Numbered from the stretch's first letter, positions 94 to 29,740 are shown. The stretch: 64,000 bases of DNA from a bacterium (GCA_963663405.2 CAXXSM010000150.1:1-64000), one strand, 5' to 3'. Numbers and translations are program-made. Notes: a model not told the origin generated them from the letters alone.

Positions 94-2154
94 TGTTTTC
101 ACTCGATTTCATCAATCAATTGGGAGAATCATGGGCGTCCTTCATGTGGTACCAGACGTTGGATTCAACGCTGGTTCTGACGGTGATCGGCGGCTTGTGG
201 TTGATGATCCGCAAACGTTCATCGGCGCAGCTGGGGTATTGCCTGTTCCTGCTGGTTCTGCTTAAACTAACCGTTCCCGGCCAGTTTTCACTGCTTGGTG
301 TGATGGAATATCTTTTCCCGGATCATGCCGTGACACGCGGCGCTGGTGGCTTCGAACTCGTTATCGATGAGAGGGAGAATGCAACATCCGCCGGAGACCA
401 ACAATCTGCGGAGGAACAGATTAATACAGCCGTCACGTCCAATTCATCGTCATTCTTCTGGTCGAAGATATCCATCATGACCGTTTTTTATGACCGTGTG
501 GAGTGTAATGGTGGCGCTGCTGCTTGGGCGGTTTATTTGGATGCAGTGGCGGATGTTTCGCCATACACGGAAGGCCAAGTCCGTCCGGGATCGCGAGTTG
601 CTGCGGCATTTCGAGCAGCTAAAGAAGATTGCGGGAATAAAAAAGCCGATCCGTCTGTTGACCGGTTCCTGGGTGACGTCGCCGGTTGTATGGGGATTGT
701 TCCGGCCTGTTTTATTGGTACCCCATAATATGTCTCTACGATTCACCGCCAATCAGATTCGATGGATCTTGTTGCATGAATTGGCTCACATCCGGCGCCA
801 TGACAATATCGTTGTGATTGCGCAACGAATTATACAGATAATTTTCTTCTTCCATCCAGGAGTCTGGTTCGTGAATTGGATCATCGACCAGCAGCGGGAA
901 TACGCGTGTGACGACGTGGCTCTGCAGGGCTCGAATTCGTCACGCAAGGATTGCGGCGAAGGTTTTTTAGGCGTGGTGTTGCAGGCGAACGGGCTGCCGA
1001 CATTCGTAGCGGCCTCAGTCGGTATGATCAACACAAAAACCTTAATAAGGAGAAGACTGATGAGAATTCTAGATAAACACCGAAAATTGAAGGCGCAGCT
1101 GTCATACACCGCCATGTCGCTATTGATGGTTCTGACTGTCATTGTGATTCCATACGGCGGCCGGCTCGCTATCGCGCAAACAATGGAATGGACGGAAATT
1201 TTAATCGACGAAAGCATGCGACCACCAGCAAGGCTTGAACATCAAATGTGTTACGATTCCGCCCGTGATGTTATGGTCATGCATGGAGGAAAAGGAGAAT
1301 ACTCTGTTAAATTACATGACACATGGGAATTTGACGGAGAAGAATGGAAACTCGTTTCCATGGATGGACCTGCCCGGTATAAGCATCGAATGGTATACGA
1401 CGCCGCCCGTGGAGTGTGCGTGTTATTCGGGGGATATGGAACCAGCTTGACCGATCCTCACGCCGATACGTGGGAATGGGACGGTCAACATTGGAAACAG
1501 GCCGCTCCAAACACCGAAGAATTGGGAGGATTTCCCGGTATGGCCTATGACCCAAGCCGCCAAAAAGTGATCCGTCATGGAGGTGGATTGGACAAAGAAG
1601 GCGGTGGAGAAATTATCAAAAAATATAACAGCACATTCGAATGGGATGGAAGCGCATGGAACAAAATCGCGGAAGGACCGGCTGGACCCGCTATTATGGT
1701 CTATGATACAAATAAGAATAGATTGATACTCTTTCATTATGAACGTATTGAATCCCCACCTCGTATAAACAATGTTTTATGGGAGTTCAACGGAACCGAA
1801 TGGGAAAAAATCGATTTCGACGACTCGGTTGAAGCATATTACACTCCCGCATACGCATTTGATGAATCTCGCGGACTCACCGTTACATTCGGTGGAGTGA
1901 GAAATAGGAATTGGGGATTCTCTGAGTATTATGTGAGCGATCAAACGTATGAATGGGATGGATGGGACGTTTTTCTTATTTATACAGCACATAGGCCACT
2001 GGCGCGAAGCGGCGTGGAAATTGCGTATGACTCCAAACAGAACAGAATGATTTTGTTTGGAGGAGGCCAAGGCACATCCATTTATTATAATGACACATGG
2101 GCATACAGCGCGGAACAGAGCGGCATCTCCAAGAGTGTGTGGCAGTTGTATTGA
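90..2154 (+). CDS. BlaR1/MecR1-like M56 metallopeptidase fused to a C-terminal Kelch-type beta-propeller (frameshifted at T6, 484-489)
   Basis: ORFs 90..728 and 490..2154 join if one T is removed (MTVF-MTVWSV). HELAH zinc motif, QREYACD, repeated YD..R...FGG....DTWEWDG..W Kelch units; ends SKSVWQLY. Confidence 0.85.
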
Positions 2155-2170
2155 TTGGTTAGGTAATTAG

Positions 2171-2218
2171 ACTGAAGGCTGAAGACTGAAGGAAAATCCT
2201 TTGGCCTTCGGCCTTTGG
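2171..2218 (+). repeat. Heptamer-repeat hairpin, RCTGAAG x3 / CCTTYGG x3
   Basis: actgaag gctgaag actgaag gaaaat cctttgg ccttcgg cctttgg; the arms pair using G-U wobble; lies just after the M56 stop. Confidence 0.6.
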
Positions 2219-2257
2219 ATCGCATATTTACGCTTCACACTCATCTCCTATGAACGA

Positions 2258-2566
2258 TCAATTCCAGTCTAGGTAATAGAAATTCCAAACTGGACTGGAA
2301 CTCGCCGGATTCCCTAACAACAGATATACAGCGCCCGCGTCTTCTCGATCTGGATAGTCATATCCAGGATCGCCGAGGATAAGATCGTCCGCCTCATCAT
2401 TGTTGAGTTTCATGAAGTAGGCGCCGGTTCCTAATAATTGGTTGTTTACGCCGCCTTTGATGAAGTAGTTATATCCACCATTTTCTAAATCGATTTTACG
2501 CAGCCATTCTTCGCGGCCACGGAAAAGATAGACTTAACCATTCCCATCCTTTCGAAATTGAAGATA
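2258..2566 (-). pseudogene. 3' relic of an FG-GAP/integrin-alpha repeat protein
   Basis: Manual translation: ...KDGNG*VYLFRG...KLNNDEADDLILGDPGYDYPDREDAGAVYLLLGNPASSSPVWNFYYLDWN*; in-frame TAA at 2534-2536; no signal peptide or proper start. Confidence 0.7.
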
Positions 2567-2730
2567 AGAGAGATTCTTCCCAATATCATGCAGAAATATA
2601 CAAATTAATTGAACTAACGAATGATTATTAAGGCTGGCTTAGATATGATTGTTCGGATAAGCGAAGTGGAGAGCTGAGTGTGAAGCATCGAAAGCGGAAT
2701 TTGAAAGTGAACTGTTCTATGGTTCTCTTA

Positions 2731-4596
2731 TCATAACAATTCCCAGACTGCGCTGGCGGACGATGTTGACGGAACGATTTTCAATACTTTCCCATTGTTT
2801 CCAAATGGGCCGAGGGCGCTTGACGCGCAAACATAAATGGCGCCGTTGCGGTCTTGCCCAAATCCTTTCAAATACAAACCAAGGGAATCATCATTCGCTC
2901 CGAGATGGAATTCATAGATCTGATTCGATGAATCGAGATAGAAGAGGCGTCCATTGGGATTGCTAAATCCAGTGGAAAAATCTCCAAAAACATAGAACCC
3001 GTTCAACTCGGGAATGGCTGTGTCATGGTACACAAATCCACCGACGATCGCGGTTCCATCATCATGATCGTATTGCGCGATGGGATCAATCAACGGCTCT
3101 GGCGGCAAAGGGGCGGCGGGTTCCGTTGCGATGAATCCACTGCTCGATCCATTCGCGTCAAAGAAAAATGATCCTTCCTTGTGACGCCAACCATGATTTT
3201 CACCATTCGATACGACAGTGATTTCCTCGACCAGGTTTTGACCGACATCAGCTACATATAAAATTCCGTTGGGATCGAAACTGAAACGGTAGGGATTACG
3301 GAATCCATAAGCGTATATCTCATCCACTCCCTCTGTCCCAACAAACGGATTATCCGGTGGAACGCCATACTGCCCATTGGCGGAGTTATCACCATTCACA
3401 TCGATCCGAATAATCGAACCAAGGATCGTATTGATGTTTTGCCCATTGCCTTCCTCACCATGTCCCTCTCCTTGGTCGTCCGCCGCGCCTCCATCACCCA
3501 ATGCGATATAGAGAAAGCCATCCGGTCCGAACTGCAGGCCACCGCCATCATGGTTGAATTGCGGTTCATCGATCCGTACTAATTCACGACGGGAACTGAC
3601 TAATACTTGATTGGGATTGGCTGAATCCGTAGTCCATTCGGCAATGACGCTTTGATGATTATGCGCGCCGGATGTCAACGGGACCGTAAAATCGGCGATG
3701 GATTCAACGGGTTCCGATGTGAAAGTATAGAGTTTTTGATTGACGCTGAATTCAGGATGGAAAGCCAACCCGAGCAGTCCGCGTTCATCGTAATCGTTTT
3801 CATCAAACGAACCACTGATTCCAAGGGGAACCAATCGATCAGACACATCAAGGAAGGGAACCGCCAGCGGCGCGCCATTTACCAAAACCGTAACAATACC
3901 GGTTTGATCGTACACAAACAATCGCCCCGTTCCATCATCCGGTTCTACAACGCCCAAAGGCGAAGTCAAGCCGTCAATCAGCGTTTCCAACTCGATTGTG
4001 ATGGTTCCTTTTGGGATATCCGGTAGAGGATCGCCAATGGGAATTCCTTCACCGAAAACGTTGAAATCGCCCCGCATTGTGCTTGCGTGATTTCGGCAGC
4101 GATATCCCGGCGTATTGCCCTGTTCTCTCATTGCGGCGATCAGATTGGATGTCAGCGTGAATTCCACATACCCATCACCAAAGTCCTGCCAACTGACATC
4201 CGCGTCGGTCTCGAAGGATCCTTCAAAAGAGCCTTGTGAAAGGAGAACAATATCGCTTCCAGTCACCGCTCCCTTGGCCAGGATATCAAGCGGATGAGGG
4301 CCTGGATTTACAATAAAAATACGGTACCGCTTATTCATGATTAAGTTGATTGCTGGATCATTCGCGGGTAGCGCATCCGTATAGAGATCAGAGGAGGATA
4401 CACTTGTCAAAGTGTAGTCAATGAAACTGTTGTTGTCGAAGGTCCACTCGTAATCATACGCCAATGAAGTGGACGTTAAAAGACTTAAATAAAAGACGGC
4501 GCCGAATAGACGCAGGATCGATCTACACATTTTTCCTTGTCTATAAGGACGCTGTTTAGATAAAAGAATGGGAATCATTATGTTTTTTCCTTTCAT
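2731..4596 (-). CDS. Secreted PQQ-dependent glucose/sorbosone dehydrogenase (GSDH) family protein with N-terminal cupredoxin-like domain
   Basis: Signal peptide (TSLA-Y); HPL...YRCRNHASTMRG copper-site motif; ERGLLGLAFHP, NHDGGGLQFGPDGFLYIALGDGG, AYGFRNPYRFSFD, VADVGQ; ends SASAVWELL. True start may be downstream. Confidence 0.85.
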   Translation of the reverse strand: MKGKNIMIPILLSKQRPYRQGKMCRSILRLFGAVFYLSLLTSTSLAYDYEWTFDNNSFIDYTLTSVSSSDLYTDALPANDPAINLIMNKRYRIFIVNPGPHPLDILAKGAVTGSDIVLLSQGSFEGSFETDADVSWQDFGDGYVEFTLTSNLIAAMREQGNTPGYRCRNHASTMRGDFNVFGEGIPIGDPLPDIPKGTITIELETLIDGLTSPLGVVEPDDGTGRLFVYDQTGIVTVLVNGAPLAVPFLDVSDRLVPLGISGSFDENDYDERGLLGLAFHPEFSVNQKLYTFTSEPVESIADFTVPLTSGAHNHQSVIAEWTTDSANPNQVLVSSRRELVRIDEPQFNHDGGGLQFGPDGFLYIALGDGGAADDQGEGHGEEGNGQNINTILGSIIRIDVNGDNSANGQYGVPPDNPFVGTEGVDEIYAYGFRNPYRFSFDPNGILYVADVGQNLVEEITVVSNGENHGWRHKEGSFFFDANGSSSGFIATEPAAPLPPEPLIDPIAQYDHDDGTAIVGGFVYHDTAIPELNGFYVFGDFSTGFSNPNGRLFYLDSSNQIYEFHLGANDDSLGLYLKGFGQDRNGAIYVCASSALGPFGNNGKVLKIVPSTSSASAVWELL

Positions 4597-4944
4597 TCAT
4601 TAAACCGGTGTAATTTGTCGTATGTTCTATTGATTCAATAAAAAATCATGAGGCAATGTTGCTTCACGACCTCTCATGGGGCGTTTTACTCCTTTCCAAG
4701 AGCCAAATACTCAGAAGAAAACTGCCTAAATCTATGATCTACAAGGCCCATATATTTGCGCCCAAATTCAAAAGGCTTATACACTAAATTTATATCTTCT
4801 CATTTTTCAAAAGCAACAAAAAAATAGGTTTGCGCAATTGTACGCATAGAAAGAAGGTGTTATTTTCAGCTGAAGAAAAGAGTTTTGTTGGTTATCTAAA
4901 TAGGGAATACAATTGAAGTTGTGTTTTTCTTCCGGAGCGTAAAA

Positions 4945-5571
4945 TCAGTAGGAATAAACTTTCGACGACCAGCGGTAAATATCGCCCTGGCTGACAATTC
5001 CATTGCTTGGATTGTATGGAGTCACCGCGAGTAAATTAGCGAGAGCAGGTTCGCAAACGGGGCAATCGGAGCCACCGGTATGAACGTCAGCCGGTGGAAA
5101 ATAGTGAATCTGCGCCAATTCTCCATCGGGTCCGGAACTGGCGATCATGGCGAATTTATCTCCTAAATCGATCGTGCCTCGAATCCCGGCGCGGTCCGCC
5201 CGTCCATAACAATACGCTTTGGAACCTGGGATTTCCTCCATATCGATCCACGCCGCGCCGTTGTTGTAGGAATGAGGAAATGGATCGTTAGGGATACTTC
5301 CGATATACGCTACGGGCGTTGTCAGACGGTAAAAGCGACTGGCAAAATTCATTTCTTCAGTAGTATTGGAATATGGATTGGGAAATACGTTTCGATCGAT
5401 CCGGTAAGTTTCCAGCGCGGAAAACAGCGCGCGTGATTCTTCCACTACGCGAGCGACTTTGGCCCGTGTCAAAGCCGAGAGAAAATTGGGAACGGCGATC
5501 GCCGCTAAAATGCCAATAATGGCGACTACGATCAGTAACTCGATCAAGGTAAATGCAGTATTTTTTCCCAT
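4945..5571 (-). CDS. Prepilin-type N-terminal cleavage/methylation protein (GspG-like pseudopilin)
   Basis: A-FTLIELLIVVAIIGILAAIAVPNF class III signal; LTTPVAY..P.DPF, SGPDG and YNPSNG..S.GDI blocks. Confidence 0.9.
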   Translation of the reverse strand: MGKNTAFTLIELLIVVAIIGILAAIAVPNFLSALTRAKVARVVEESRALFSALETYRIDRNVFPNPYSNTTEEMNFASRFYRLTTPVAYIGSIPNDPFPHSYNNGAAWIDMEEIPGSKAYCYGRADRAGIRGTIDLGDKFAMIASSGPDGELAQIHYFPPADVHTGGSDCPVCEPALANLLAVTPYNPSNGIVSQGDIYRWSSKVYSY

Positions 5572-5603
5572 CGTAAAACCTCTTTTCCATTATGGGAATC
5601 CAA

Positions 5604-5638
5604 CCGCCGTCCCCGGAGAGCCGCTCCAGAGACGGCGG
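5604..5638 (-). other. Strong GC-rich intercistronic hairpin without U-tract
   Basis: Minus strand CCGCCGTCTCTGGAG-CGGCT-CTCCGGGGACGGCGG between the propeller and prepilin genes. Confidence 0.6.
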
Positions 5639-5648
5639 ATTGAATAGT

Positions 5649-6914
5649 CTATTTCACCAGTGACCAATAAGGGATGTGAGAGGTCACTTCCAAGGGCAGT
5701 GTGGATAAGAAATATGGCGCCGGTTCACATGGAAACGTCTCCATTGTTAACATGGTAACATCCACCACGGCGATTAAATCGGTTTGAGTGAGCCCCAGAT
5801 AGGCTTTTTGGCTATCCGGGGAGAAATCCTGCGCGAAGAATCCCACTTGGCTTGGAGTGGAAAGAGGAAATTCTTTCACGATCGTCATATAATCCGGTGA
5901 AGATGGATCGCAATTAATAACGTGGATTAATTGCGTTTCTTGATCCCCGGGCATATTGAAATCCCCCGCGACAATCCACTTACCGTCGGGGCTATACGCA
6001 AATCCCTTGCAACTGACGCTTTCAACCGTTTTCATCTCTTCCGTTTCCAAGTTGATGGAATAGAAATAACTCCCTGGTTCACCATCCCAGTGACAGTTGC
6101 CAACGATATACCGGCCGTCTGGAGAAAGTTTCAACGAGGGGGTCATATGCCCTTCGGTCGTAGAAATCGTTTTGAGATGAACGTCTTTTTCAGCGCCTTC
6201 CGTTCCAAAAACTTCTACACCGCCCGCGCAGGCGATATAAACCTTTTTCATCATGGGTGAATAGACAACAGAATGAGGCAAAGGGAGAATATCCGAATGT
6301 GTTATCCGGATGGTTTTCGTGAGTCCATCAATAATATCCACACCGCCGGGACTATCCGTTCCATTAAAGCGTGTAGCGTAAATATCGTATCCCGATTCGG
6401 TCGTTGGAAAACCAACTGTGGCGTGATGATGCCCCCCCTCGAATGTCTCGATTTCCATTGTCTCTGGATCGATCAGACTTACCGTGTCTTCCCCATCATT
6501 TGCTACGCAGAACCGGTTATCCGGCGTCACGTAAGAATGAAACGGATGCGCGCCGGTTTCCAGCGTACGCGTACAAAGAATAGAACCAGGATACGCGCTG
6601 TAATCAAACGCTTCGACGGTTCCTCCTTCTTCAGAATCACCATCTGGACAGGAGACAAAAAATTTCTTTACGGATGGAATGGCTCTGATAAAACGAGGCG
6701 TATTCTCCAGAACCGAGCCAGAGGGTTCATATGAAAACACTATTGTTCCATCCGGTTCGTATACGGTGATCATTTTGTTGATATCGTTCCGGTGACTAAC
6801 GGCGATGAGGTGATCCGCCGCGAAAACTTCAATACAACAAAATAATCCAGCGATTGCAAGCGAAAAAAATGTAAGGCTTCGATAGGTCAATATCAATTCA
6901 ATTATTCTTTTCAT
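5649..6914 (-). CDS. Secreted His-rich YVTN/YncE-type beta-propeller (AztD-like metal-binding candidate)
   Basis: Signal peptide (VFA-AD); TPD, SPDG and FSPD blade motifs; VANDGEDTVSLID; His clusters HPFH, GHHH, PH; ends TSHIPYWSLVK. Confidence 0.7.
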   Translation of the reverse strand: MKRIIELILTYRSLTFFSLAIAGLFCCIEVFAADHLIAVSHRNDINKMITVYEPDGTIVFSYEPSGSVLENTPRFIRAIPSVKKFFVSCPDGDSEEGGTVEAFDYSAYPGSILCTRTLETGAHPFHSYVTPDNRFCVANDGEDTVSLIDPETMEIETFEGGHHHATVGFPTTESGYDIYATRFNGTDSPGGVDIIDGLTKTIRITHSDILPLPHSVVYSPMMKKVYIACAGGVEVFGTEGAEKDVHLKTISTTEGHMTPSLKLSPDGRYIVGNCHWDGEPGSYFYSINLETEEMKTVESVSCKGFAYSPDGKWIVAGDFNMPGDQETQLIHVINCDPSSPDYMTIVKEFPLSTPSQVGFFAQDFSPDSQKAYLGLTQTDLIAVVDVTMLTMETFPCEPAPYFLSTLPLEVTSHIPYWSLVK

Positions 6915-6948
6915 TATCGTTTTGCTCCTAATAAATAGATAACACCCA

Positions 6949-7003
6949 TGTCATGATAGAAATCATGACAAAGCGAAAACCAGTCATTCAAATAGCATGA
7001 CTG
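6949..7003 (-). promoter_or_regulatory. Two inverted repeats with a shared GTCAT/ATGAC core (possible attenuator)
   Basis: TGTCATGAT-agaa-ATCATGACA (6949-6970) and CAGTCAT-N9-ATGACTG (6981-7003), between the RGPP leader ORF and the next gene. Confidence 0.5.
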
Positions 7004-7034
7004 TTCATGTAAAAGAAACTGGAAAAAAGCAAGA

Positions 7035-7391
7035 TTACAGAATGATAGGAGGTCCCCTAGGGAAACAGGGACGAACACGGCGGACTATAGGCGTTTCAAT
7101 GGGAATCTTAGCAAAGCATTGATCGTTCTCAGCAAAACAGAACGTTTTACCCTTAATAATGAAATTTCGCGCAATTTGAAGGACTCTACAGATCTCACAT
7201 TCATGATCGCCACATACGGCATGTTCAAGATGATCGATCGCGGAGTCTTCTAGATGAATTAAATCTGATTGATGGGAGGGAGTGATATGCGGGTGATGGT
7301 GTATGGACGCAAGGAGAATGACTCCGCAATGAGCTAGCAAAGCGGCCCAAGCGCTGAATCGCTGAAAACGTTTTGAGAGCCATGTATCCAT
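7035..7391 (-). CDS. DUF2946/CruR-like small protein: hydrophobic N-terminus, His-rich, CxxC, C-terminal RGPP (putative arrest-peptide leader)
   Basis: MDTWLSKRFQRFSAWAALLAHCGVILLASIHHHPH...HECEIC...PRGPPIIL*; ATG at 7391 chosen over the longer ORF-track start. Confidence 0.75.
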   Translation of the reverse strand: MDTWLSKRFQRFSAWAALLAHCGVILLASIHHHPHITPSHQSDLIHLEDSAIDHLEHAVCGDHECEICRVLQIARNFIIKGKTFCFAENDQCFAKIPIETPIVRRVRPCFPRGPPIIL

Positions 7392-7541
7392 AGGTGATTT
7401 TTTACCCACTACGATCATAGTAGAAGATGCGGATAGAAATGTCAAGCGAGTAAAAATGTCAATGTAGTGGACACTGTGGACTTACGAAATCGTTTTTGAT
7501 GATCCATTCAATTCGCACAGCAGGATTGTTTCAAAAACAGT

Positions 7542-9476
7542 TTATTCTCCAATCGTAATCATTCCCTCGATCCAATCGCGCAGGTCCCACTCTCCCATCG
7601 ACACATCCGCTGTCAGGATATACTGCCCCGGCTTTGCGTTTTGAGGAGCGGTGACGGTCATTTTTGCAATCCCTTCCGCAAGAGGAGCGAGGGTGAGTGA
7701 TAGTTTTTTGGTTTCAGCTTGCCAGCCTTTTGGAATATGAGGACAGATGGAAAAAGTCCCTTCTTGATTGGAGTGGTTCATGATACGAATCCCTATTTCC
7801 GCTTGGGCGCCGGCTTTAATCGCTGTTCCATAAGGATAAAATCGCGCCCAGCCTTCATCGATTCCATAGTTTGGATCGTCCCACGGGAACAATTCGCGCA
7901 AGAGTTCCACTCGTTCATTGAGTGTGGCGATCATACGATCGATCTGCTTTTGGGAAAACCGGAACGTGGGAACAACGTGTTCGTTAATCAATAAATAATC
8001 CGGTTTCATCTTTTTTAAAACGTCCAGACAATAAAAATATCCCATATCCGGATGCAGGAGATTTCGATTCAATAAACAGTAATCATCAATGCCGGAGGGG
8101 GTAAACGAATCACCGATAAAGAAGATCGTCTCCCCGCCGTCTTTTTTCACAACTAGACCGCCGTGATAAATCGTTTGTCCAGGATGATAGGAAAACGTAA
8201 ACGTGAATTCGTTCCAGCGTAGAATACTTCCTTCCGGCATCACTCTCAGATTGTGAATAGGATTCGCCGTCATCGCAGGCAGGCGGTACGCGGATGGACA
8301 TTCCAGAATATCGCGCTGCTCGGAACAGGCGTAAACCGGGCAACCAAAAATTTCAGAGCCAGCCATCGCTTGATCGGTATGATCATCGTGGTAATGCGTA
8401 ATATAAATCCCTTCGATTGACCGGACGCTTCCTTCCTTGATTAACTCTTGTACTTTTTTGATAATGTTCTGGCTTCCACAGTCGATCAGAAATCCGGATT
8501 TGTCTTCGGATACGATCAGGCGTGTGTTACTGATGGGAATGATCCATTCCGGAGGGCGTTCGTTCAGCGTCTCTGCGAAAGGCATCCAATCGATTTCCGC
8601 GTCCGGCCCCATCACGCGCCGGGCGCACGTGAGGATGTGATCGTCGCCAAAATACCAGCGCAACGCGTTAATGCTCAGATAATTTTCGTAGGCTTTTTCA
8701 AGCCGCTTGATAAGCCGTTCAATCGCCGCTTGCGGGTTTTTAATGATAGGACCGCGCGCGGGTATAATCAGATCCGGTTTGCAATCCGCCACCTTGCGCA
8801 GGCTTTCCACCAGTTGGCCGATTCGTCCCGCGTAGCCATGGTAGCCGCGTATTTTCGCTTCGGGGATGGCGTCTTGCAAGCTATACCAATCGAGAATCTT
8901 GCCATCGCCATAGATCAAGTCTCCCGTAAACGCGATGGTTTTTCCATCGATCTTCATCAAATAACTCACCGCCCCGCGTGTGTATCCGGGCGTATCCAAC
9001 ACACGAATGGGAATTCCCTCCCATTCAAGGTTTGAATCTTCATTTACGGTTCTTGCGATAGGGAGCGGCGCCGTGAGGATTTTCGTGGTCTGCTGGGCGT
9101 AATCGTGAAACCGCTTTGTGGCGAACGCATTCCAAAAATCATGAACGCTGGTGAAGAGAGAAATTTCCTTTGCTGGGACAACCGCCTTCGCGCCGTTTTC
9201 AACAAGAGCGCGTCCAGCCCAAACAACATCGCGCCGGTGGTGTGTGAACAAAACCATATCCACCGGAATTGGCTCCATCGCAGGATACCCATAAACAGCG
9301 AGTGTTTTTCCATTGCGTTCTAATACAGCGCCGTTTATTGGGCCATGATATACACGTAGACTTTCGCTGATGGTCTCCATTTCTCCTGAGAACGCAGAGA
9401 TTGAATTGGAATAGAGAATTACAGCGGAATAAATGAAAATCCAAAACCGGTTATTCATAACTTTCACCTTATACAC
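7542..9476 (-). CDS. Secreted tandem metallo-beta-lactamase-fold hydrolase with C-terminal Ig-like domain
   Basis: Two MBL modules (FTHHRRD...TPG...FTGD; IDCG...ITHYHDDH...HPGQT...FIGD); C-terminal P.GW / V.AP..A.PG.Y Ig-like pattern. Confidence 0.8.
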   Translation of the reverse strand: MYKVKVMNNRFWIFIYSAVILYSNSISAFSGEMETISESLRVYHGPINGAVLERNGKTLAVYGYPAMEPIPVDMVLFTHHRRDVVWAGRALVENGAKAVVPAKEISLFTSVHDFWNAFATKRFHDYAQQTTKILTAPLPIARTVNEDSNLEWEGIPIRVLDTPGYTRGAVSYLMKIDGKTIAFTGDLIYGDGKILDWYSLQDAIPEAKIRGYHGYAGRIGQLVESLRKVADCKPDLIIPARGPIIKNPQAAIERLIKRLEKAYENYLSINALRWYFGDDHILTCARRVMGPDAEIDWMPFAETLNERPPEWIIPISNTRLIVSEDKSGFLIDCGSQNIIKKVQELIKEGSVRSIEGIYITHYHDDHTDQAMAGSEIFGCPVYACSEQRDILECPSAYRLPAMTANPIHNLRVMPEGSILRWNEFTFTFSYHPGQTIYHGGLVVKKDGGETIFFIGDSFTPSGIDDYCLLNRNLLHPDMGYFYCLDVLKKMKPDYLLINEHVVPTFRFSQKQIDRMIATLNERVELLRELFPWDDPNYGIDEGWARFYPYGTAIKAGAQAEIGIRIMNHSNQEGTFSICPHIPKGWQAETKKLSLTLAPLAEGIAKMTVTAPQNAKPGQYILTADVSMGEWDLRDWIEGMITIGE

Positions 9477-9502
9477 ATTACATTAGGGGGGTATTGATCA
9501 CC

Positions 9503-10016
<514 letters not shown>

Positions 10017-10040
10017 TTAAAAAACAATAGACTAAATGAA

Positions 10041-20239: not shown

Positions 20240-20313
20240 GCGCCGTCATTGAGTGGAAGGGAATTTTCTTATTCGGCACAGAGCAAAGAGGTGACACGTA
20301 AAGGAAAAATCGA

Positions 20314-20589
20314 ATGAACGAAATGAAAGTAATTGAACTGGGACAATTAATGATGTTCAACGCGCTCATCATCAGCCTTCCCCTTTTAGGAATCGGGTTG
20401 ATTGTCGGTGTATTGATCAGCATCGTGCAGTCCGCCACGCAGATTAATGAGCAAACCTTAACCATTGTGCCCAAACTGCTGGTGGTCGGATTGACGATTA
20501 TGTTCCTTATGCCGTGGTTGATGGAGCGGATTTTGGATTTAGCGACAATGCTGTTCAATCAAATCCCCGATGTCGCGAGAAACCGGTAA
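20314..20589 (+). CDS. fliQ: Flagellar export protein FliQ
   Basis: GLIVGVLISIVQSATQINEQTL..VPKL. Confidence 0.95.
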   Translation: MNEMKVIELGQLMMFNALIISLPLLGIGLIVGVLISIVQSATQINEQTLTIVPKLLVVGLTIMFLMPWLMERILDLATMLFNQIPDVARNR

Positions 20590-20595
20590 AAACCA

Positions 20596-21447: not shown

Positions 21448-21501
21448 ATTGCGGTTCATTCATTCTGAACGATGACTTGAACATCGTCGGTGTAGGTATC
21501 T

Positions 21502-22585
21502 ATGGCGGAAAACGAGTCCGGACAGGACAAAACTGAGGCGGCGACTCCTCGAAAGCGCCAACAAGCGAGAGAAAAGGGCAATGTCCCGAAAAGCCAGGAG
21601 ATCAACACGACTCTCATTTTGATCGCGGGAGTCGTGGCGTTTTTCCTTTTTCGCCGAACGATTCTATGGAAAAATCGCGCTGGCGATCCAGATTTACCTG
21701 GGGCAATGTCATATACGCGAAGTAAATCCAGAGAGCGCGCATGCGATTATTTTGGAATTGGGATTTCGCGTTCTTGAAATCCTGATGCCCTTTTTCATCA
21801 TCTTTGTCATCGTGGCGCTCGCGATCAACTTCGCCCAAGTGGGATTACTCTTTTCCGCCCAGGCGCTGCGGCCTAAATTCGAACGGTTGAATCCGATCAG
21901 TGGATTCAAACGGCTCTTCTCCATCCGGGGCCGGATCGAATTGGTTAAGGCCATTGCAAAGATGATGGTGATCGCGCCGGTTATGATCTACACCGTTTAT
22001 TACGCGCTTCCGGGAATGCGGGATCTGATGGGTTATGAGGCGAAACAAATTCTAATCCACATCGGATGGAAGGCGCTTGAAGTCGCCGTCTACGCATTGC
22101 TGGTCATGCTGATTCTTTCACTATTGGATTTCGTGTATCAGCGCTGGCAATTCGAACAAGACCTTAAGATGACCAAGCAGGAAGTCAAGCAGGAAATGAA
22201 AGACATTCAGGGTGATCCGCAGATTAAAGGCCGTATCCGCTCTTTACAAATGGAAATGGCCCGTCGCCGCATGATGCAGGAAGTGCCGGAAGCGGAAGTG
22301 GTCGTCACAAATCCAACGGAATACGCGATCGCCCTGAAATACGGCCCAAACACCGGCTTGGCGGCCCCAATGGTCGTCGCCAAAGGACGCGGAGCGCTCG
22401 CGCGGAGAATCAAGGAGATCGCGCTTGAACATGATGTGCCGATTGTTGAAAACCGGCCGCTGGCGCAGTCACTCTATAAATTAGTGGAAGTGGGGGATTT
22501 GATTCCTCCTGACTTATACCAGGCGGTGGCGGAAGTTCTCGCGTATGTCTATCGCTTAAAGGAACGAGCTCATCAATGGGCGTAG
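21502..22585 (+). CDS. flhB: Flagellar export protein FlhB (frameshifted at T5 runs, 21640-21651)
   Basis: KTEAATPRKR..AREKGNVPKSQE joins LNPISGFKR...KMTKQEVKQE.K...GDPQIK...NPTE when one T is removed. Confidence 0.93.
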
Positions 22586-22599
22586 GGATCTAAGAAATC

Positions 22600-24728
22600 A
22601 TGGCGGACGTGAACGCAAAAGCCCGTGGAATCAACGCGCAAAGTATCACGAATATTGTGGTGGCGTTTGGATTCGTGGGCATTATTGGAATTATGCTGGG
22701 TTCGATCCCTCCCAGCATGTTATCCTTTTTACTCGCCACGAATATATCCCTTGCGCTGATGGTTCTGATGCTCTCGCTGTATATGAAGAATCCGCTGGAA
22801 TTTACGACGTTTCCATCGGTGCTGTTAATCCTGACATTCTTCCGGCTCTCGCTGAACGTCGCGTCGACCAAACTGATTTTAACGCCAGGCGCGGGGGCGC
22901 GAAAGCCGGCGCCGTTATTCAATTCTTCGGCGAGGTCGTCGCCGGGAACAATCCCATTATCGGATTCGTCGTTTTCCTGATTCTGATCATCATTCAGTTT
23001 GTGGTCATCACCAAAGGTTCGGGGCGGATCGCGGAAGTCGCCGCCCGCTTCACCTTGGACGCCATGCCGGGCAAGCAGATGGCGATCGACGCGGACCTGA
23101 ACGCCGGTCTGATTACCGAAGCGGAAGCCCGACAGCGCCGCGCGGAAATCGCGCGGGAAGCGGATTTTTACGGCGCAATGGACGGCGCCAGCAAATTTGT
23201 CCGGGGCGACGCCATCGCCGGGATTATCATAACCGTGATCAATATCATCGGGGGCATCGCGGTCGGTTTCATTGATGGTTTGGATTTCATGACCGTGCTA
23301 GAGACGTACACGATCCTCACCATCGGTGACGGCCTGGTCAGTCAGATCCCCGCGCTTCTCATTGCGACCGCCGCCGGTGTTGTCGTCACACGCGCTTCGG
23401 AAGAACGGGCGTTGGGAGAGAGTTTGACCGAACAATTCTTCGGCAAACCGGAGGCGATGTTCGCAGCGTCGGCGGCGATTTTTCTTGTCGCTACACTGGG
23501 AATGATTGTCAGCCCTGGCATCGTATTGCCGTTCGCGTCGATGGCGTTCCTTGTGGGCGGCGGTGCGTGGTGGATGCGGCAGATCCAGGAAACGAGAATC
23601 GAGGAGGAAGAGGAAGCCAAACGGGCGGAAGTGGAAGAAGCGCCGCCCGAACCGGAACGGGTCGAATCCCTGCTCGAAGTGGATCCCATGGAAATCGAGA
23701 TCGGCTTCGGATTGATTTCCATCGTAGATAGCGAACAAGGAGGCGATCTGTTGGACCGGGTCGCGGTCATCCGGCGGCAGACCGCCGTCGAACTGGGGAT
23801 CGTCGTTCCGCCCATCCGCATCCGCGACAACATGCAGTTGGGTCCACGGCAGTACAACATCTTAATCCGGGGGATCAAAGTGGCGGAAGGGGAAATTCGT
23901 CCCGACCGGTTGTTGGCGATGAATCCATCAGCGGCGGAGGATGACGACGTACCGGGAATCAAAGGCGTTGAACCGGCGTTCGGCACACCGGCGAAATGGA
24001 TCGAACCCAATGAACGCTCCCGCGCCGAAATGGCGGGTTACAGCGTCGTAGAACCCGCCGCCGTGTTGGCGACTCACCTTACGGAAATTATCCGCAGCCA
24101 CGCCTATGAACTGCTCGGACGGCAGGAAGTCCAGGAACTGATCGATAATCTTAAGGAACGTAACGCCGTTCTTGTTAAAGAATTGATTGAAGTGACCAGC
24201 GTCAAGATCGGTATCATCCAAAAAGTCCTGCAGAACCTATTGCGCGAGCGTGTGCCGATTCGAAATCTGGAACTGATTTTCGAAGCGATCGCGGATTACG
24301 CCGAACCCTCGCAGATGAATCCAGACACAATCACGGAATACTGCCGCATGAATCTGGCCCGGATCATTACTCAGCTCTACCTCGATCAAAACGGGCAGCT
24401 GCCGGTCATTACTATCGATCCCAATATCGAAGCCCGCATTCTGGAAGGTATGCAGCGGGGCGGTATGGCGGGCGTCATGGCGACTGATCCGGCCTACGCG
24501 GAGCGTATCATCACCAGCATCCAGTCGGCGGCGAACGACGCTATCGCGTCCGGCTATCATCCATTGGTTTTAACAACACCTCAAATTCGTTCGCATTTGC
24601 GCCGTCTCTGTGAGCGGCGAGTGGGTCAATTAATTGTTCTGTCATATAACGAAGTGGCGCCGGATGTTCAGGTGACCCGGATTGTAACAGTGAGGTTGCA
24701 AAGTGAGAGTGAAAAAGTTTCAAGCTAA
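22600..24728 (+). CDS. flhA: Flagellar export protein FlhA (frameshifted at G5, 22893-22897)
   Basis: FPSVLL..T.FRLSLNVAST; one extra G gives AGAVIQFFG.VV.GN...QFVVITKGSGRIAEVAARFTLDAMPGKQMAIDADL. Confidence 0.95.
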
Positions 24729-26199
24729 ATCCATGCCCGAAGCCATGAAAATGGTCAAGGCGGAACTCGGTCCTGACGCGATTATCCTGCATTCACGCGA
24801 TACGGGCCGCGGCTTCTTTGGCCTCTTGATGGGCCGGGGAGTTGAAATCACCGCCGCTGTCGATACGGCAGAGAACAAAAAACCGGCGGCGCCCAAACGT
24901 TCTAACGGCGCCAATGGAAACAAATCCAAACTAAAAACAGGTGGGAATATCAATATTCAGATTTCCGATCCCCCGTCACTCTCGGACCCACCTCCTCTCC
25001 TTGATCCGGCGCCAAAACCAAAGCCCGTGGATGAAGATCTCCTTCGGCGCCTGACGGAGCAATTGGCAAACGATCCGCGTCCGCAGAAACCGAATGGAGA
25101 TATCGCCTTCGATCAACCAAAACCATCGCCTTCGGAACAAAGGAAGGAAAAACGGTTGGAAGAACGAATTGCGCGGCTGGAGAGTCATATCCACAAACTA
25201 ACCGGCATGATCGAACACCTCGTGCCCTCTCTCACATCCGGAGACGTTCCCGCTGTCCCTCAACACACGCGGGAACTATATAACCATCTTCTCGAACAGG
25301 ATGTTGATGAACGATTGGCGCTTTCCATCGCCGCGCGGATCGCGGAGACCATAGACGAAAAAGACGATGCTTGGACCGCGTTGAAAACGCATCTGATCTC
25401 CCGCATTCCCGTCGCGCCTCCAATTGAAATTGATTTTGATGTAAAGAAACCCAAAGTCCTGATGCTCGTTGGTCCGACCGGCGTTGGGAAAACGACGACC
25501 TTGGCGAAGATTTCGGCGCAATACCGGAGCGTGGAGAAAAACCGGCGTCCTAAGATTGTCTTCATCACCGCCGATCTCTATCGATTGGCGGCGGTGGAAC
25601 AGTTGCAGAAGTACACGGAAATCCTCGGCTCCCATCTCGAAGTCACCTACTCGCCGGATGAAGTCACACAGGCGTTGAACAAACACAAAGACGCGCATCT
25701 GATCTTATTCGACACAGCGGGAACCAGCCAGCGCAACATGCCTCAGATGACCACGCTCGCGGGGATCGTGGAAGCGGCGCAGCCTACCGAAGTCCATCTG
25801 GTGCTTTCCGCTACGACGAAATTCAGTGACGCGGTGGATATCATCGAACATTTCCAAGCAGTCAAACCAACGCGCCTGATTTTCTCCAAAATTGACGAAG
25901 CCACAACCTATGGCACGATATTGAATAGCGTTTCGAAATTCAACATCCCCATCTCCTATCTCACCGTCGGTCAGAATGTGCCGGAAGATATTGAATTCGC
26001 GCGCCAGGATCGGATCGCCAAACTCCTAATGACCAAACCAGCCGTCAATCGTTCTATTATCAGTCTGAAGGACGGCCTGGACGATCCAGCCGGAAAAACG
26101 CCCTCCAATAAAAAAAAGCCGGAGGAGAAGCGCCAAACCGATCCAAGCGTAAAGGATACCAATAAGCGGGAACGAACCGATGAAGAAACGAATTCCTGA
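24703..26199 (+). CDS. flhF: Flagellar SRP-family GTPase FlhF
   Basis: MRVKKF.A..M.EA..VK.ELG.DAIIL; GPTGVGKTTT; DTAG; SKIDE; GQNVPEDI. Confidence 0.95.
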   Translation: MRVKKFQAKSMPEAMKMVKAELGPDAIILHSRDTGRGFFGLLMGRGVEITAAVDTAENKKPAAPKRSNGANGNKSKLKTGGNINIQISDPPSLSDPPPLLDPAPKPKPVDEDLLRRLTEQLANDPRPQKPNGDIAFDQPKPSPSEQRKEKRLEERIARLESHIHKLTGMIEHLVPSLTSGDVPAVPQHTRELYNHLLEQDVDERLALSIAARIAETIDEKDDAWTALKTHLISRIPVAPPIEIDFDVKKPKVLMLVGPTGVGKTTTLAKISAQYRSVEKNRRPKIVFITADLYRLAAVEQLQKYTEILGSHLEVTYSPDEVTQALNKHKDAHLILFDTAGTSQRNMPQMTTLAGIVEAAQPTEVHLVLSATTKFSDAVDIIEHFQAVKPTRLIFSKIDEATTYGTILNSVSKFNIPISYLTVGQNVPEDIEFARQDRIAKLLMTKPAVNRSIISLKDGLDDPAGKTPSNKKKPEEKRQTDPSVKDTNKRERTDEETNS

Positions 26200-27454
26200 T
26201 CAGGCGGAACAACTCCGCCGTCTGGTCGAAAACGAACAGAACGATATCAACGAGAACGCCCCTGTTAAGGACGCTTCATCGGGCGCCGTTACCGCCGTTG
26301 AACCGAAGAGTCAAACCAGCGGCGCGGAGAAACTTATCCCACAGGCGTCTAAAAAAAAGAAATTAAAGAAGAATAAACAGGCCAAATTTCAGATTGAAAA
26401 CGACCTAGTCAATATAGAACTGCCCATTAAAAACGCACAGGCGCCGGCGGAAATACTCACAAATCCACTTTCGAAATCAACCAATTCACAGGAGAATACA
26501 AAGCCCTCTTCGCAACCAATCACGAAAAAGGAGACGTCCCAAGCCCCACCAAAAGAGAAGAAACCACAGATCACATCCGCGCCAATGATTGGCAAGATCA
26601 AACGTCTGGCCGTGGAAAAAGAAACCCGCGTCATCGCGATTACGGGCGGTAAAGGCGGAGTCGGAAAAACGAACGTTGCCTGTAACCTCTCACTCGCTTT
26701 TACGCGCATGAATAAAAAGGTCCTCCTTCTCGACGCGGATCTATCGCTGGCGAACGTCGATGTGCTGCTTGGAATGACGCCCCGGTTAAATCTGTCCCAC
26801 GTCATCAACCGGGAGAAAAAACTCCACGAGATTCTCGTTCAAGGAGCCGAAGGGCTTACAATTGTTCCCGGCGGCTCTGGTGTGGAGGAATTAAGCAACC
26901 TGCCCCCAAACCAATTGGAGGAACTCTTTGACTCATTCGCCCGCATCACACCGGTTCCTGACATTCTCCTAATCGACACGGCGGCGGGCATCCATCCTAA
27001 TGTGATTCAATTTCTCTTAGCCGCCGATCAGGTCATCGTGGTCACCTCACCCGAACCGCCATCGTATACCGACGCCTACGCCCTTATCAAAACGCTGGTA
27101 AAACACGACGCGAACAAAGATATTGGGATTCTCGTGAATATGGCCCAATCCCCCCGCCAAGCGCTGGACGTCGTCAGGCTCTTACTCCAAATGTGTCAAC
27201 AGATGCTGCACATTCAATTGCGCAATATGGGTTTCATCCCCCGTGATCCCGCCGTATTGAAAGCGGTCATGCGCCAAAAACCATTCCTCCTGCAGGCCCC
27301 AAACTGCCCCGCCTCCAAATCGGTCCACAACATCGCGGCCACAGTCCTCCAAGTCAAATCCAACCAAGACCACCCCGGCGGCATCAAAAACTTCTTACGC
27401 CGCCTTTTCGGCTCTAATAAACAACCGGAATTGAAAGCGGCGTCGTCGACGTGA
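26180..27454 (+). CDS. flhG: FlhG/FleN MinD-like ATPase with a long N-terminal linker
   Basis: DQAEQLR N-terminal motif; GKGGVGKT; DADLSLANVD; DTAAG; DAYALIK; follows flhF. Confidence 0.92.
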   Translation: MKKRIPDQAEQLRRLVENEQNDINENAPVKDASSGAVTAVEPKSQTSGAEKLIPQASKKKKLKKNKQAKFQIENDLVNIELPIKNAQAPAEILTNPLSKSTNSQENTKPSSQPITKKETSQAPPKEKKPQITSAPMIGKIKRLAVEKETRVIAITGGKGGVGKTNVACNLSLAFTRMNKKVLLLDADLSLANVDVLLGMTPRLNLSHVINREKKLHEILVQGAEGLTIVPGGSGVEELSNLPPNQLEELFDSFARITPVPDILLIDTAAGIHPNVIQFLLAADQVIVVTSPEPPSYTDAYALIKTLVKHDANKDIGILVNMAQSPRQALDVVRLLLQMCQQMLHIQLRNMGFIPRDPAVLKAVMRQKPFLLQAPNCPASKSVHNIAATVLQVKSNQDHPGGIKNFLRRLFGSNKQPELKAASST

Positions 27455-27496
27455 TAACCCTTCACGTCACTCGAATGAGCGTCCATTGGATTTTCT

Positions 27497-28396
27497 TTAA
27501 AATCCTCTATTCTTTTTTAACTCGTCACTATAAAGCAATTCATGAAGTTTATAAGCAGGGACTACTGCTGCAATACCTAAGTTAGATGAATAAGTTGGAT
27601 TTTTTTTTGTTTCTATATTTTCAATCTCTTTATCTTCACCGAAGTGGCCAATCAATACACCTGCTAGTTTATATTTTAGGTAAACTGCATTCACAGTTAC
27701 AATCTTATTATCACTTCCAAAATAAAAAAACACCGGAGATCCGCTATTTCCCCCGTAGGAACCTGCTTCAATAAGGTACAAGTCCCTTTTTTTGTCTTGC
27801 CATTCTATTTTTTCTTCTGTGATAAGCGCGACACGTCCAAACCTTACAATAGGATAATTCTTTTCAGCTCCTGGATATGGTGTAAAAAGACCTGTAAAAA
27901 ATACATCAGAACCTTCATGAATTTCCATATTTTTAAAATCTTCTTCCGTTGTAATCATTCCTTCTGAAATTAATTTTAAATCAATTATATTCAGATTAGG
28001 ATGAAAATGGATTATTGCTAGATCAACGTCGGAATCATCGTGTGTGGAAACTGTTCTTAGTAAACCTTCAGCAATTATCGGTATATTTATATATTCAACC
28101 ATGCCGTCCTTCTTGTTAAGGCGAAGGTAAACATTTGATAACCAGTTTTTACCATCAGGTGTTTTCAGAACATGCTTTGCGGTGACAAAATAGATAGCAT
28201 GACGTGTCTTTTCTGAATTTCGAACTCCCACAAAAAAGCCCGTTCCGTAGGGTACTTTCTTATTATCCTGATTGAGGACATAGACATATCCTACAGCAGA
28301 TTTTATTTCCGGTGGGAAAAGTACAGCATCAGCATTCAAATTGGAAATGGATATTAGTATAAATATTACCATAAGAAAAATACAAATGGCTCTCAT
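27497..28396 (-). CDS. Secreted trypsin-like serine protease
   Basis: Signal peptide; GTGF, VTAKHV (His), DVDLA (Asp), GGNSGSPV (Ser). Confidence 0.85.
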   Translation of the reverse strand: MRAICIFLMVIFILISISNLNADAVLFPPEIKSAVGYVYVLNQDNKKVPYGTGFFVGVRNSEKTRHAIYFVTAKHVLKTPDGKNWLSNVYLRLNKKDGMVEYINIPIIAEGLLRTVSTHDDSDVDLAIIHFHPNLNIIDLKLISEGMITTEEDFKNMEIHEGSDVFFTGLFTPYPGAEKNYPIVRFGRVALITEEKIEWQDKKRDLYLIEAGSYGGNSGSPVFFYFGSDNKIVTVNAVYLKYKLAGVLIGHFGEDKEIENIETKKNPTYSSNLGIAAVVPAYKLHELLYSDELKKNRGF

Positions 28397-28633
28397 ACTT
28401 ATTCTCCTTTTAAAATTAAACCTAAACTTATAATGCGTCTAATTTTCTTTTTTCTATTTAAGGCCTAAATCATCATTCATAAAGCGAATATGCATTGATA
28501 TTAAAAAAATCTTTCATTTATCACGCGACTCCATAGAATCCAATCAGCGATATGCTATATTATTTACCATAATGCGTCAAGCTTTCCATATTGATTTGAA
28601 TAATTATAATTAGAACATGAATTGGAGAGAATC

Positions 28634-29740
28634 ATGAATTTCAGAAGTGTTTCCAGTTCTCTATTTTTATCACTCCTTTTCGTTGGCTTTCCCATAAGGG
28701 CATTCTCGCAGAACATTAATACGCCGGAGAATTTTCCCGATCCGAATTTTAGGGTGGCAGTTGAGGAATTTATGGGTATCCCGCCGGGCGGTGAATTTTC
28801 CGCTTTAGAAGCTGCAGTGAAGACAGATAGGTTTAACTGCTCCTACAAAGAAATTAGTGATATGACCGGGATAGAGTATTTTATCAGTATAAAAGAACTC
28901 GACTGTAGTGATTGTGGATTAATCAGCCTGGACGTTTCACGCAACACCGCATTAACTTTTCTTTCATGTGGTGGGAGCAAAATAACCAGACTGAATAAAT
29001 TAACTATCCTGGACGTCTCCAATAATACTGCTTTAGAATATCTCTGGTGTAATGGCAATCAATTAACGAGCCTGGATGTCTCCAATAATATCGCTTTAAT
29101 AGACCTCGAATGTGATGAAAATCAATTAACCAGCCTGGATATCTCCAACAATACTAATTTGAAATATCTCGGCTGTGGTAACAATCAATTAACCAACTTG
29201 GATATCTCTACTAACATTGATTTGAATGTTTTAGGCTGTGGTTATAATCCATTAACCAATTTGGATGTATCTAACAATACTGAACTGACTATGCTCTGGT
29301 GCCCTCACAATCAATTAACCAGCCTTGACGTATCCAACAACACTGCTTTGAATCATCTCCTTTGCTGGGGCAATAAATTAACTGGCCTTGATGTTTCTAA
29401 AAATACCGTTTTAAAAGACCTTCAGTGCTACAACAATCAATTAATCAACTTGGATATCTCTAACAACAATTCTCTTGATTATCTCTACTGTCAGAACAAC
29501 CAATTAAGAGATATTTCGAGCATTGTAGCAAACAAAGGACTTGGTAAAGGAGATTCCGTAGATATCCGATATAACTATATTGCTTGTGACAATTTCAATG
29601 ATGATGTAAATAATCTTGTCATTCTCGTTGAACGCATAGGAAATCCAAATATCACTGAAGATGGGTGGCTACAAACAGGTTTCGCCTTTTCACCCCAAAA
29701 AGAATGTGAAACTCCAGTACTTTCTTGGTTTTTATATTGA
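28634..29740 (+). CDS. Secreted internalin-like leucine-rich repeat protein
   Basis: Signal peptide (AFS-Q); FPDPNFR cap; about ten 21-aa repeats LTSLDVSNNTALxxLxCxxNQ; ends ETPVLSWFLY. Confidence 0.9.
   Translation: MNFRSVSSSLFLSLLFVGFPIRAFSQNINTPENFPDPNFRVAVEEFMGIPPGGEFSALEAAVKTDRFNCSYKEISDMTGIEYFISIKELDCSDCGLISLDVSRNTALTFLSCGGSKITRLNKLTILDVSNNTALEYLWCNGNQLTSLDVSNNIALIDLECDENQLTSLDISNNTNLKYLGCGNNQLTNLDISTNIDLNVLGCGYNPLTNLDVSNNTELTMLWCPHNQLTSLDVSNNTALNHLLCWGNKLTGLDVSKNTVLKDLQCYNNQLINLDISNNNSLDYLYCQNNQLRDISSIVANKGLGKGDSVDIRYNYIACDNFNDDVNNLVILVERIGNPNITEDGWLQTGFAFSPQKECETPVLSWFLY

Follow-up and report, generated by a model that had tools for sequence, protein, structure and literature searches.

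A ten-residue C-terminal tail on unrelated exported proteins of Candidatus Hinthialibacterota, probably an address for the cell envelope

Why should proteins of different folds, encoded on a single bacterial contig, end in nearly the same few residues? The question is raised by a stretch of 64,000 nucleotides (GCA_963663405.2, CAXXSM010000150.1:1-64000; referred to here as the window), which constitutes contig C150 of an 8.44-Mb, 82% complete genome from the phylum Candidatus Hinthialibacterota. The phylum placement follows a homologue that carries the name Ca. Hinthialibacter; OLB16 is given as an alias of the phylum in the part of PMC11382960 that was available. A preliminary description of the window, made from its sequence alone, had pointed to four exported proteins (a Kelch protein, a cupredoxin-GSDH protein, a YVTN propeller, and a leucine-rich-repeat [LRR] protein) that share a W-x-[LF]-hydrophobic end, and had proposed this end as the recognition signal of an uncharacterised secretion or surface-anchoring system. 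The C-terminal sequences of the four intact open reading frames (ORFs; 490..2154 and 28622..29740 on the plus strand and 2731..4596 and 5649..6914 on the minus strand) are as claimed there. The short motif does occur above chance, but the true motif is longer and, within the window, canonical only in the tail of the LRR protein. On the evidence presented below, the tail is very probably a real, phylum-wide, and uncatalogued C-terminal address that directs proteins to the cell envelope after translocation.

ORFs were called with a simple program of our own, and signal peptides were judged by hydropathy rather than with SignalP. Over the 6,780 ORFs of the genome, an iterated ten-column matrix of protein ends, used at a threshold of at least 8 bits, converged on x-[TSV]-[SAP]-[VI]-x-[DN]-W-x-[LIV]-[YFH] and matched 220 ORFs, or about 3% of the total. 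The motif sits at the very end of the protein in 167 of these, is followed by one extra residue in 47, and by two or three in the remaining 6; when 13 inner offsets (5 to 50) were used as a control, each gave only 0 to 2 matches. With half of the contigs used for training, cross-validation returned 83/3,315 and 106/3,465 held-out matches, against 0 and 2 when the comparison was shifted thirty residues inward, and internal copies numbered 27 among 2.18 million positions. Tryptophan at position -4 was observed in 252 of 5,555 ORFs, compared to an expected 93 (and to 52 to 125 at other positions). Upstream of that residue, 216 tags have T, S, or A at -9 in 158 cases, G, S, or A at -8 in 114, and V or I at -7 in 187, and most copies end in an aromatic residue. 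Even the loose motif of the preliminary description was strongly enriched in exported over cytoplasm-like proteins (109/1,312 versus 23/2,300; odds ratio [OR], 9.0; P = 1e-28). The tag is a real feature, beyond chance.

The proteins that carry it look like exported cargo. An N-terminal hydrophobic stretch was found in 175 of 208 tagged proteins (84%), compared to 2,115 of 5,263 others (40%; P = 2e-37); a transmembrane (TM) segment after residue 70 was absent in 203 of the 208, and a lipobox was present in 5. One false positive with five TM segments was removed from the tagged set for the counts of cargo composition and of pilin neighbours. By single linkage, 213 tagged proteins fall into 87 families, the largest with 45 members, and 51 scanned proteins out of about 215 show a mixed set of Pfam domains (CotH-LTD, WD40, beta-helix, CBM9, LamG, LRR, sulfatase, esterase, PepX, SnoaL, DUF4198, FlgD-Ig, and PPDK), with 31 of the 51 lacking a Pfam match at 1e-8. 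Tagged cargo is more acidic than untagged exported proteins (median net value, 0.098 versus 0.026), and a glutamine directly follows the predicted signal peptide in 99 of 162 tagged proteins (61%), compared to 310 of 1,230 untagged exported ones (25%). Glutaminyl cyclase PF05096, the one cyclase type searched for, was not found in this 82%-complete genome. Two of the tagged proteins are Tat-type sulfatases. As observed in the preliminary description, the tag marks a subset of the exported proteins: the four untagged signal-peptide proteins named there score between -15 and -32. An unusual exported protein is encoded at L113:2433-5468, where a tagged signal-peptide protein of 1,012 aa contains a PPDK nucleotide-binding domain.

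Beyond this genome, strict stop-anchored DNA patterns gave 865 matches in 35 genomes of the phylum, compared to 63 for reversed controls, and exceeded the control in 34 of the 35; these genomes are kin rather than independent, so that the counts show range and do not amount to a test. The genome G027 was considered as a tag-less control and rejected as such: it has 0 strict matches, but 6 of 355 ORFs in 438 kb have variant tails of at least 6 bits. The range may extend to a second phylum. In GSDH homologues with the names BRC1 or Sumerlaeota, the last residues are either a divergent Trp tail or P-V-G-L-S-S-F-I-M-E in the same register, and Sumerlaeota-named proteins carry a sister form, P-V-[EGT]-L-S-x-F-x-x-[EN], to which two tails in other records are similar. 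The sister form scores about -4 bits (null P, about 0.02), and in-between forms starting with P-V-x-V are present in the genome studied here; judging from these tails, we infer that the Trp and P-V-x-L-S-x-F forms are kin. The Sumerlaeota link is drawn from a few protein names plus metagenome contigs. In its pattern, the sister form is reminiscent of an Ig-like domain's first strand.

None of the catalogued signals accounts for the tail. When 56 tails of 30 aa were compared with NCBIfam release 20 at an E value of at most 1, 55 had no match and one had a sub-threshold chance match, and no C-terminal model appeared in the whole-protein domain scans of tagged proteins. A 25-aa tail used as a query against the ESM Atlas gave one match at 0.78, below the usable level. 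A description of the tag was not found in literature searches, whose reach excluded supplements and most subscription journals; the main texts of PMC8092238 (on Sumerlaeota) and PMC9324843 (on Hinthialibacter), as distinct from their supplements, do not mention the word "C-terminal". As was noted earlier, the tail also fits none of the tripartite systems, the signals of which are defined by a TM helix plus a basic cluster (Haft, bioRxiv 10.1101/2023.06.07.544157, in the part available). With LPXTG/sortase, PEP-CTERM/exosortase, GlyGly-CTERM/rhombosortase, MYXO-CTERM, and IPTL-CTERM, it shares its shortness, its C-terminal position, its many copies, and its occurrence on signal-peptide proteins; unlike them, it has neither a TM helix (the 203 of 208 proteins mentioned above lack any later TM segment) nor a basic cluster.

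Closer in character is the type A C-terminal domain (CTD) used in type IX secretion (by the T9SS; TIGR04183/PF18962), which is likewise C-terminal and membrane free, is borne by many unrelated Sec-exported proteins, and occupies the same place in LRR homologues. Glutamine, which is frequent after the signal peptide in Bacteroidota, is often found there in tagged proteins as well, and peptidases with the C25 architecture of the T9SS enzyme PorU (NF033707; PDB 6za2) occur in every genome of the phylum. The tag differs in that it comprises ten residues, forms no beta-sandwich, and lacks motifs B, D, and E, whereas the shortest T9SS CTDs described in the accessible part of PMC11969387 measure 43 to 55 aa. 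Matches to the T9SS CTD itself (TIGR04183/PF18962; a beta-sandwich of 43 to 80 aa) number 0 in this genome and 1 to 4 in 5 of 35 genomes, mostly on short contigs. SprA had no match in this genome or in five near-complete relatives, and the control genomes gave none either; GldM and GldN were each found in 0/5 genomes, with controls that were also silent. Another terminal address module, dockerin type I (PF00404), which pairs with cohesin, stands in for the tag in homologues; it has a duplicated, Ca-binding EF-hand and measures about 60 aa, whereas the tag lacks an EF-hand and is about a fifth of that size. None of the 6 dockerin-like proteins that a strict pattern found in this genome is tagged. 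The tag works like a minimal T9SS CTD yet belongs neither to the T9SS nor to the tripartite signals. The C-terminal sorting signals described for bacteria all depend on a helix in the membrane or on a folded domain of at least 43 residues, and a linear tag of ten residues would be the smallest such signal found in this comparison.

The case for the tail as an envelope address rests chiefly on what homologues carry in its place, as that position is filled by anchoring modules. Among 120 GSDH homologues, the segment after the last conserved propeller strand is a short Trp tail in 16 at 6 bits or more, and in about 29 by eye; these tails extend 11 to 17 aa, mostly 13 to 14 aa, past the domain. 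A dockerin-like tail was recognized by eye in about 47 of the 120, those with a name belonging to Planctomycetota, and the others have a TM-plus-basic tail (2 cases, which we take to be of the IPTL type), PKD or other domains, or nothing. Likewise, 120 LRR homologues include 18 with a T9SS CTD, 6 with SLH, 3 with LPXTG, and 2 with dockerin, and some relatives within the phylum have a dockerin-like tail. Further short tails at the same GSDH position (P0187, P0177, and P0179) include an F-L-P-L-I tail, presumably typical of Chloroflexota, and the TM-plus-basic tails, which makes the GSDH family a handy reporter for lineage-specific sorting signals. A sorting or anchoring role, as first proposed, is therefore supported by the enrichment among exported proteins, the terminal position, the 87 families, and the swaps with anchors. 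That the system behind it is wholly uncharacterised, however, may be otherwise: the best candidates for its machinery, a PorU-like sortase and the type II secretion apparatus (T2SS), are relatives of known machines.

We tentatively favour, at somewhat less than an even chance, a mechanism that combines export by the T2SS, cleavage by a PorU-like sortase, and attachment to the surface. From their sequence features, cargo proteins would be exported across the inner membrane through Sec and processed by signal peptidase I, or rarely pass through Tat, and would then leave the periplasm in a folded state through the T2SS. By homology, a PorU-like C25 cysteine transpeptidase would recognize the tail by its V/I and W-x-L-Y anchors, cut at or near T/S-[SAP]-V/I, and attach the new C terminus to a surface glycan or glycolipid that bears an amine, in the manner of PorU with T9SS cargo. 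The tail would in this way replace the T9SS CTD of 43 to 80 residues in a cell that seems to have no T9SS translocon or motor.

As for the exit step, the genome contains two T2SS operons, on contigs C29 and C118 (GspD, E, F, G, minor pilins, and L/M), of which several subunits score below the equivalog cut-offs, and GspD-like matches were obtained in 5/5 genomes tested. Since T9SS parts were not found (with mostly silent controls) and two T2SS operons were, the T2SS is the likely exit route of the cargo; it is the only outer-membrane protein exporter found among those looked for, a survey that did not extend to other export systems. A role of the T2SS in export is compatible with a PorU-like reader. 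Very large GspD-like secretins, with frames of 1,600 to 3,500 aa and many repeated N-domains, were seen in genomes of the family f5 (G028:C6:182356-192423; G030:C148; G026:C48).

The candidate reader is encoded twice. Two long C25 peptidases, one of 1,293 aa on contig C61 and one on contig C89 that is split by a frameshift and measures about 1,820 aa in relatives, each combine a PorU N-terminal region with CARDB domains; the genome also has a single gingipain-like C25 enzyme. All 35 of 35 genomes gave NF033707 matches, in most cases to a pair of paralogues. An alignment of 64 sequences, made up of paralogue B and its closest relatives, shows no variation at the catalytic His and Cys, and the same pair was recovered by a pattern scan in most paralogue A sequences. 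A structural model of the PorU-like peptidase (pLDDT, 90) has PorU 6za2 as its best fold match over the full length (TM-score, 0.33), and the same entry is the best solved sequence match (E = 5e-14); an ESM Atlas search with the peptidase returned C25 clusters only. Outside the phylum, the nearest relatives are proteins of about 1,500 aa that make up one clade; of 20 clusters looked up, a single one carried an organism name, and it holds a protein named Ca. Sumerlaeota. In a quick tree of 79 rows with none left out, this clade groups with paralogue B (SH-aLRT, 93). Metagenome contigs of this Sumerlaeota clade have tagged genes in 4 of 350 ORFs, versus 1 for the control, together with the pilin family discussed below, and at two of its loci the gene directly downstream of the peptidase is Trp-tailed; on contigs of more distantly related C25 enzymes, tagged genes number 0 in 317 ORFs. 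By eye, moreover, the first half of the tag resembles PT/GI, the Prevotella cleavage consensus, with Ile at +2 and usually a small residue at +1 (PMC11969387, in the part available).

A considerable number of observations weigh against a PorU-like reader. All NF033707 matches are below the cut-off, and the model also matches Thermotoga and Haloferax. C25 enzymes are common, with 11,461 representatives matching at an E value of at most 0.001, so that their presence is weak evidence, and their co-occurrence with the tag in two phyla may be one event passed on by descent. In 4 tag-carrying genomes of 93 to 99% completeness, paralogue B was not found. PorZ, which delivers lipopolysaccharide to PorU, was found in 0/35 genomes in a search in which the control did match; the PorV family is weak in 29/35 genomes, with none above the cut-off, and PorV-like barrels were not found in two tag-bearing families, f2 and f3. 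The PorU-like peptidases themselves are untagged and stand in housekeeping neighbourhoods. The supposed cleavage site seems ill suited to a protease, with Pro at P1' in 40 of 216 tags and Val at P1 in 51; PorU has been reported to cut regardless of sequence (PMC4804311, in the part available), which softens this objection but also deprives the likeness to PT/GI of value. Finally, the idea that the tag is a truncated T9SS CTD linker was rejected, as the linker matched no better than other protein parts (P = 0.21; 17 of 18 CTD-bearing LRR homologues, the one without an anchor motif being excluded). The predicted complex between a tagged tail of 30 aa and paralogue B (950 aa) scored 0.00, which is no answer either way.

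Two further candidates around these enzymes were discarded. A sorting operon around the PorU-like genes was not borne out, their conserved neighbours being ArgC, RlpA-like, TPR, glycosyltransferase-like, and O-antigen-ligase-like genes. A receptor role for PorV-like barrels was dropped as well, since they were not found in the two tagged families and are positioned next to untagged stalk proteins of their own: barrel genes at L029:3410-7659 and L030:4862-8916 follow genes for acidic Pro/Thr-repeat stalks, one of which has cohesin plus dockerin. This pairing, which we take to resemble that of the type B CTD and PorP, may represent a separate display system.

Several other readers of the tail have to be weighed against the PorU-like sortase. 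In one account, unlikely on the whole though to be taken seriously, the tail would serve as a linear signal for export, left uncleaved and read by the T2SS or its pseudopilus (tip pilins, GspC/D, or expanded pseudopilins), with the PorU-like enzymes serving otherwise. Type IVb pili provide a precedent in that they transport TcpF and CofJ by means of a short peptide, and binding of a pilin by a short peptide of aromatic character is conceivable. In comparison with such cargo (TcpF-TcpB, CofJ-CofB), this genome has two full T2SS operons, a minor-pilin cassette, and a large pseudopilin family, but the tag is C-terminal, is spread over hundreds of cargoes, and shows no one-to-one pairing of pilin and cargo. 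Besides the GspD-like matches in all five genomes, the abundance of pilins speaks for such a signal, as do the two tagged Tat-type sulfatases, which suit an exporter of folded proteins. There are 131 pilin-like ORFs in the genome, 116 of them in one GspG-like family, and a tagged gene lies within 600 bp of such a pilin in 26 of 234 cases, compared to 37 of 881 for untagged secreted genes (OR, 2.9; P = 2e-4). Against matched controls, however, the adjacency is 1.9-fold and not significant (acidic secreted proteins, 9/149, P = 0.10; Tat proteins, 11/180, P = 0.08), only 24 of the 116 pilins have a tagged neighbour, and tag density does not follow pilin density over 26 genomes (Spearman, -0.17; P = 0.40; within family, -0.01). 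With adjacency this modest and counts that do not covary, a one-to-one pairing between tagged cargo and expanded pseudopilins was rejected. To our knowledge, moreover, described T2SS cargo has no linear signal, and where a homologue has another module instead of the tag, an anchor is as common as an export signal. Unlikely, too, is a noncovalent docking peptide, in effect a miniature dockerin, that would hold on to a surface or periplasmic scaffold, perhaps by beta-sheet completion, and would be neither cut nor read by a channel. It would explain why a dockerin-like EF-hand is the commonest alternative GSDH tail and also occurs in some relatives within the phylum, and it agrees with the near-fixed distance of 13 to 14 residues past the domain and with an epitope-like tolerance of 1 to 4 extra residues and of Pro at -8. 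The Sumerlaeota sister form fits the same register, although its kinship is inferred, at about -4 bits; no receptor or repeat scaffold was identified, and modules of this kind are usually also internal or N-terminal, whereas the tag is confined to the C terminus.

Recognition by a PDZ or TPR protein (such as the tail-specific protease CtpA/Prc), or a function as an aromatic end signal of the type read by the beta-barrel assembly machinery, would imply control of periplasmic turnover or folding instead. We consider this very unlikely: the aromatic last residue of most copies would suit it, and five related loci of the Sumerlaeota clade have an S41 PDZ protease close to the PorU-like gene, but 53 of the 220 copies have 1 to 3 residues past the motif, which strict readers of a terminal carboxylate are known to tolerate poorly, the cargo proteins are not beta-barrels, and the swapping with anchors would be left unexplained. 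Chance, or the remnant of one family's fold, has a next to negligible probability; of the four copies in the window, three are weak, and the largest family has 45 members, but the held-out matches of the cross-validation, the 87 unrelated families, and the 865 strict DNA matches over 35 genomes all argue against it.

If the PorU-like mechanism is taken one step further, Hinthialibacterota and Sumerlaeota might share a hybrid arrangement, in which exit through the T2SS is followed by a stand-alone PorU-type sortase that ligates hundreds of tailed cargoes to the surface without a T9SS translocon, motor, or CTD, the Trp and P-V-x-L-S-x-F tails being two dialects of one signal; we regard this as possible but rather doubtful. 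Were it true, the attachment module could be detached from the remainder of the T9SS, and in other phyla orphan C25 enzymes might read orphan short tails of their own. Processing of the tag by a PorU-like enzyme would in any case give a role to widespread orphan C25 peptidases, bear on the assembly of type IX secretion, and offer a compact tag for protein ligation. With the tag, moreover, the surface proteome or secretome can readily be predicted for an uncultured phylum known from metagenomes only.

The expanded GspG-like family is represented in the window by genes at 4945-5571 and 62522-63766; its N-terminal helix is nearly invariant and its heads are variable. Each of the order's 26 genomes has 51 to 173 pattern matches to it, and it also occurs on the Sumerlaeota-clade contigs. 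N-methyl proteins number 42 to 104 in five distant genomes. A decoupling of these pilins from the tag in family f5 was considered and rejected: the DNA pattern has 0 to 1 copies per genome there, yet Pfam finds 59 to 104 N-methyl proteins in three f5 genomes. A minor-pilin cassette at L036:3015-10258 consists of four genes, including an acidic member of 1,114 aa, and gives weak matches to Verru_Chthon cassette models.

Within the window, the canonical tag ETPVLSWFLY (29708..29737, plus strand; 20.2 bits; rank 80 of 6,780 ORFs; null P < 0.001) ends an exported LRR protein of 372 aa (28622..29740, plus; ORF and domain scan), in which Gln stands right after the signal peptide, and is retained in close homologues. 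The exported beta-propeller of 421 aa (5649..6914, minus) ends in a weak tag, TSHIPYWSLV, followed by one Lys (5655..5684, minus; 4.7 bits; null P = 0.0009), and the exported GSDH-family propeller of 621 aa (2731..4596, minus; domain scan) ends in another, SSASAVWELL (2734..2763, minus; 4.1 bits; null P = 0.0012). Between these two tagged genes lies a GspG-like pseudopilin gene of the 116-copy family (4945..5571, minus), an association only. The folds given in the preliminary description held up in the domain scan for M56/Kelch, GSDH, and LRR; the YVTN-type propeller has no more than a weak YNCE/lactonase-type match, and the probable N-terminal cupredoxin domain of the GSDH protein, which has no Pfam match, rests on a Cys-x2-His-x3-Met motif spotted by eye. 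A gene relic had been listed as an additional tag bearer, but its frame runs five residues beyond the motif (...WNFY-YLDWN-stop): the tag-like motif lies at 2276..2305 (minus; 4.5 bits in the best register), and the stop is at 2258-2260. The relic itself (2261-2533, minus) is presumably an FG-GAP-like fragment. An independent public contig is identical to window positions 3389-7000, with zero differences, and a second, over the GSDH tail, differs at three sites, each of them a third codon position by our own count.

The Kelch ORF (490..2154, plus) turned out to be the 3' part of a frameshifted BlaR1/M56-Kelch fusion (90..2154, plus; ORFs 90..728 and 490..2154), of which an intact paralogue is encoded on contig C115, and not a separate gene. 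Its Kelch domain ends in a divergent tag, GISKSVWQLY (2122..2151, plus; 0.1 bits; null P = 0.0034), of a subtype common to paralogous M56-Kelch fusions; all three such fusions (window 90-2154; G000:C115:15134-17194; G000:C25:79910-82006) have the divergent tag plus two extra residues, and in all of them the last TM segment ends in a signal-peptidase-like site, with Gln next to it. In the window copy, this last hydrophobic segment ends in AIA before the Gln, from which it appears that the Kelch domain may be shed from the membrane by a signal-peptidase-like cut, and that this membrane sensor may thus release a tagged domain. Split genes also include PorU-like paralogue A (L027:2238-7690), a PorV-like barrel (L030:7993-9103), and an FlhA-like flagellar gene (window 22600-24728); the public-run contigs do not span the M56 frameshift, and the intact relatives of paralogue A suggest that the splits are assembly indels. 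Directly downstream of the Kelch domain, an intergenic element at window 2156-2200 has 22 blastn matches in the genome, often paired, and draws unrelated public-run contigs; it is probably a dispersed repeat.

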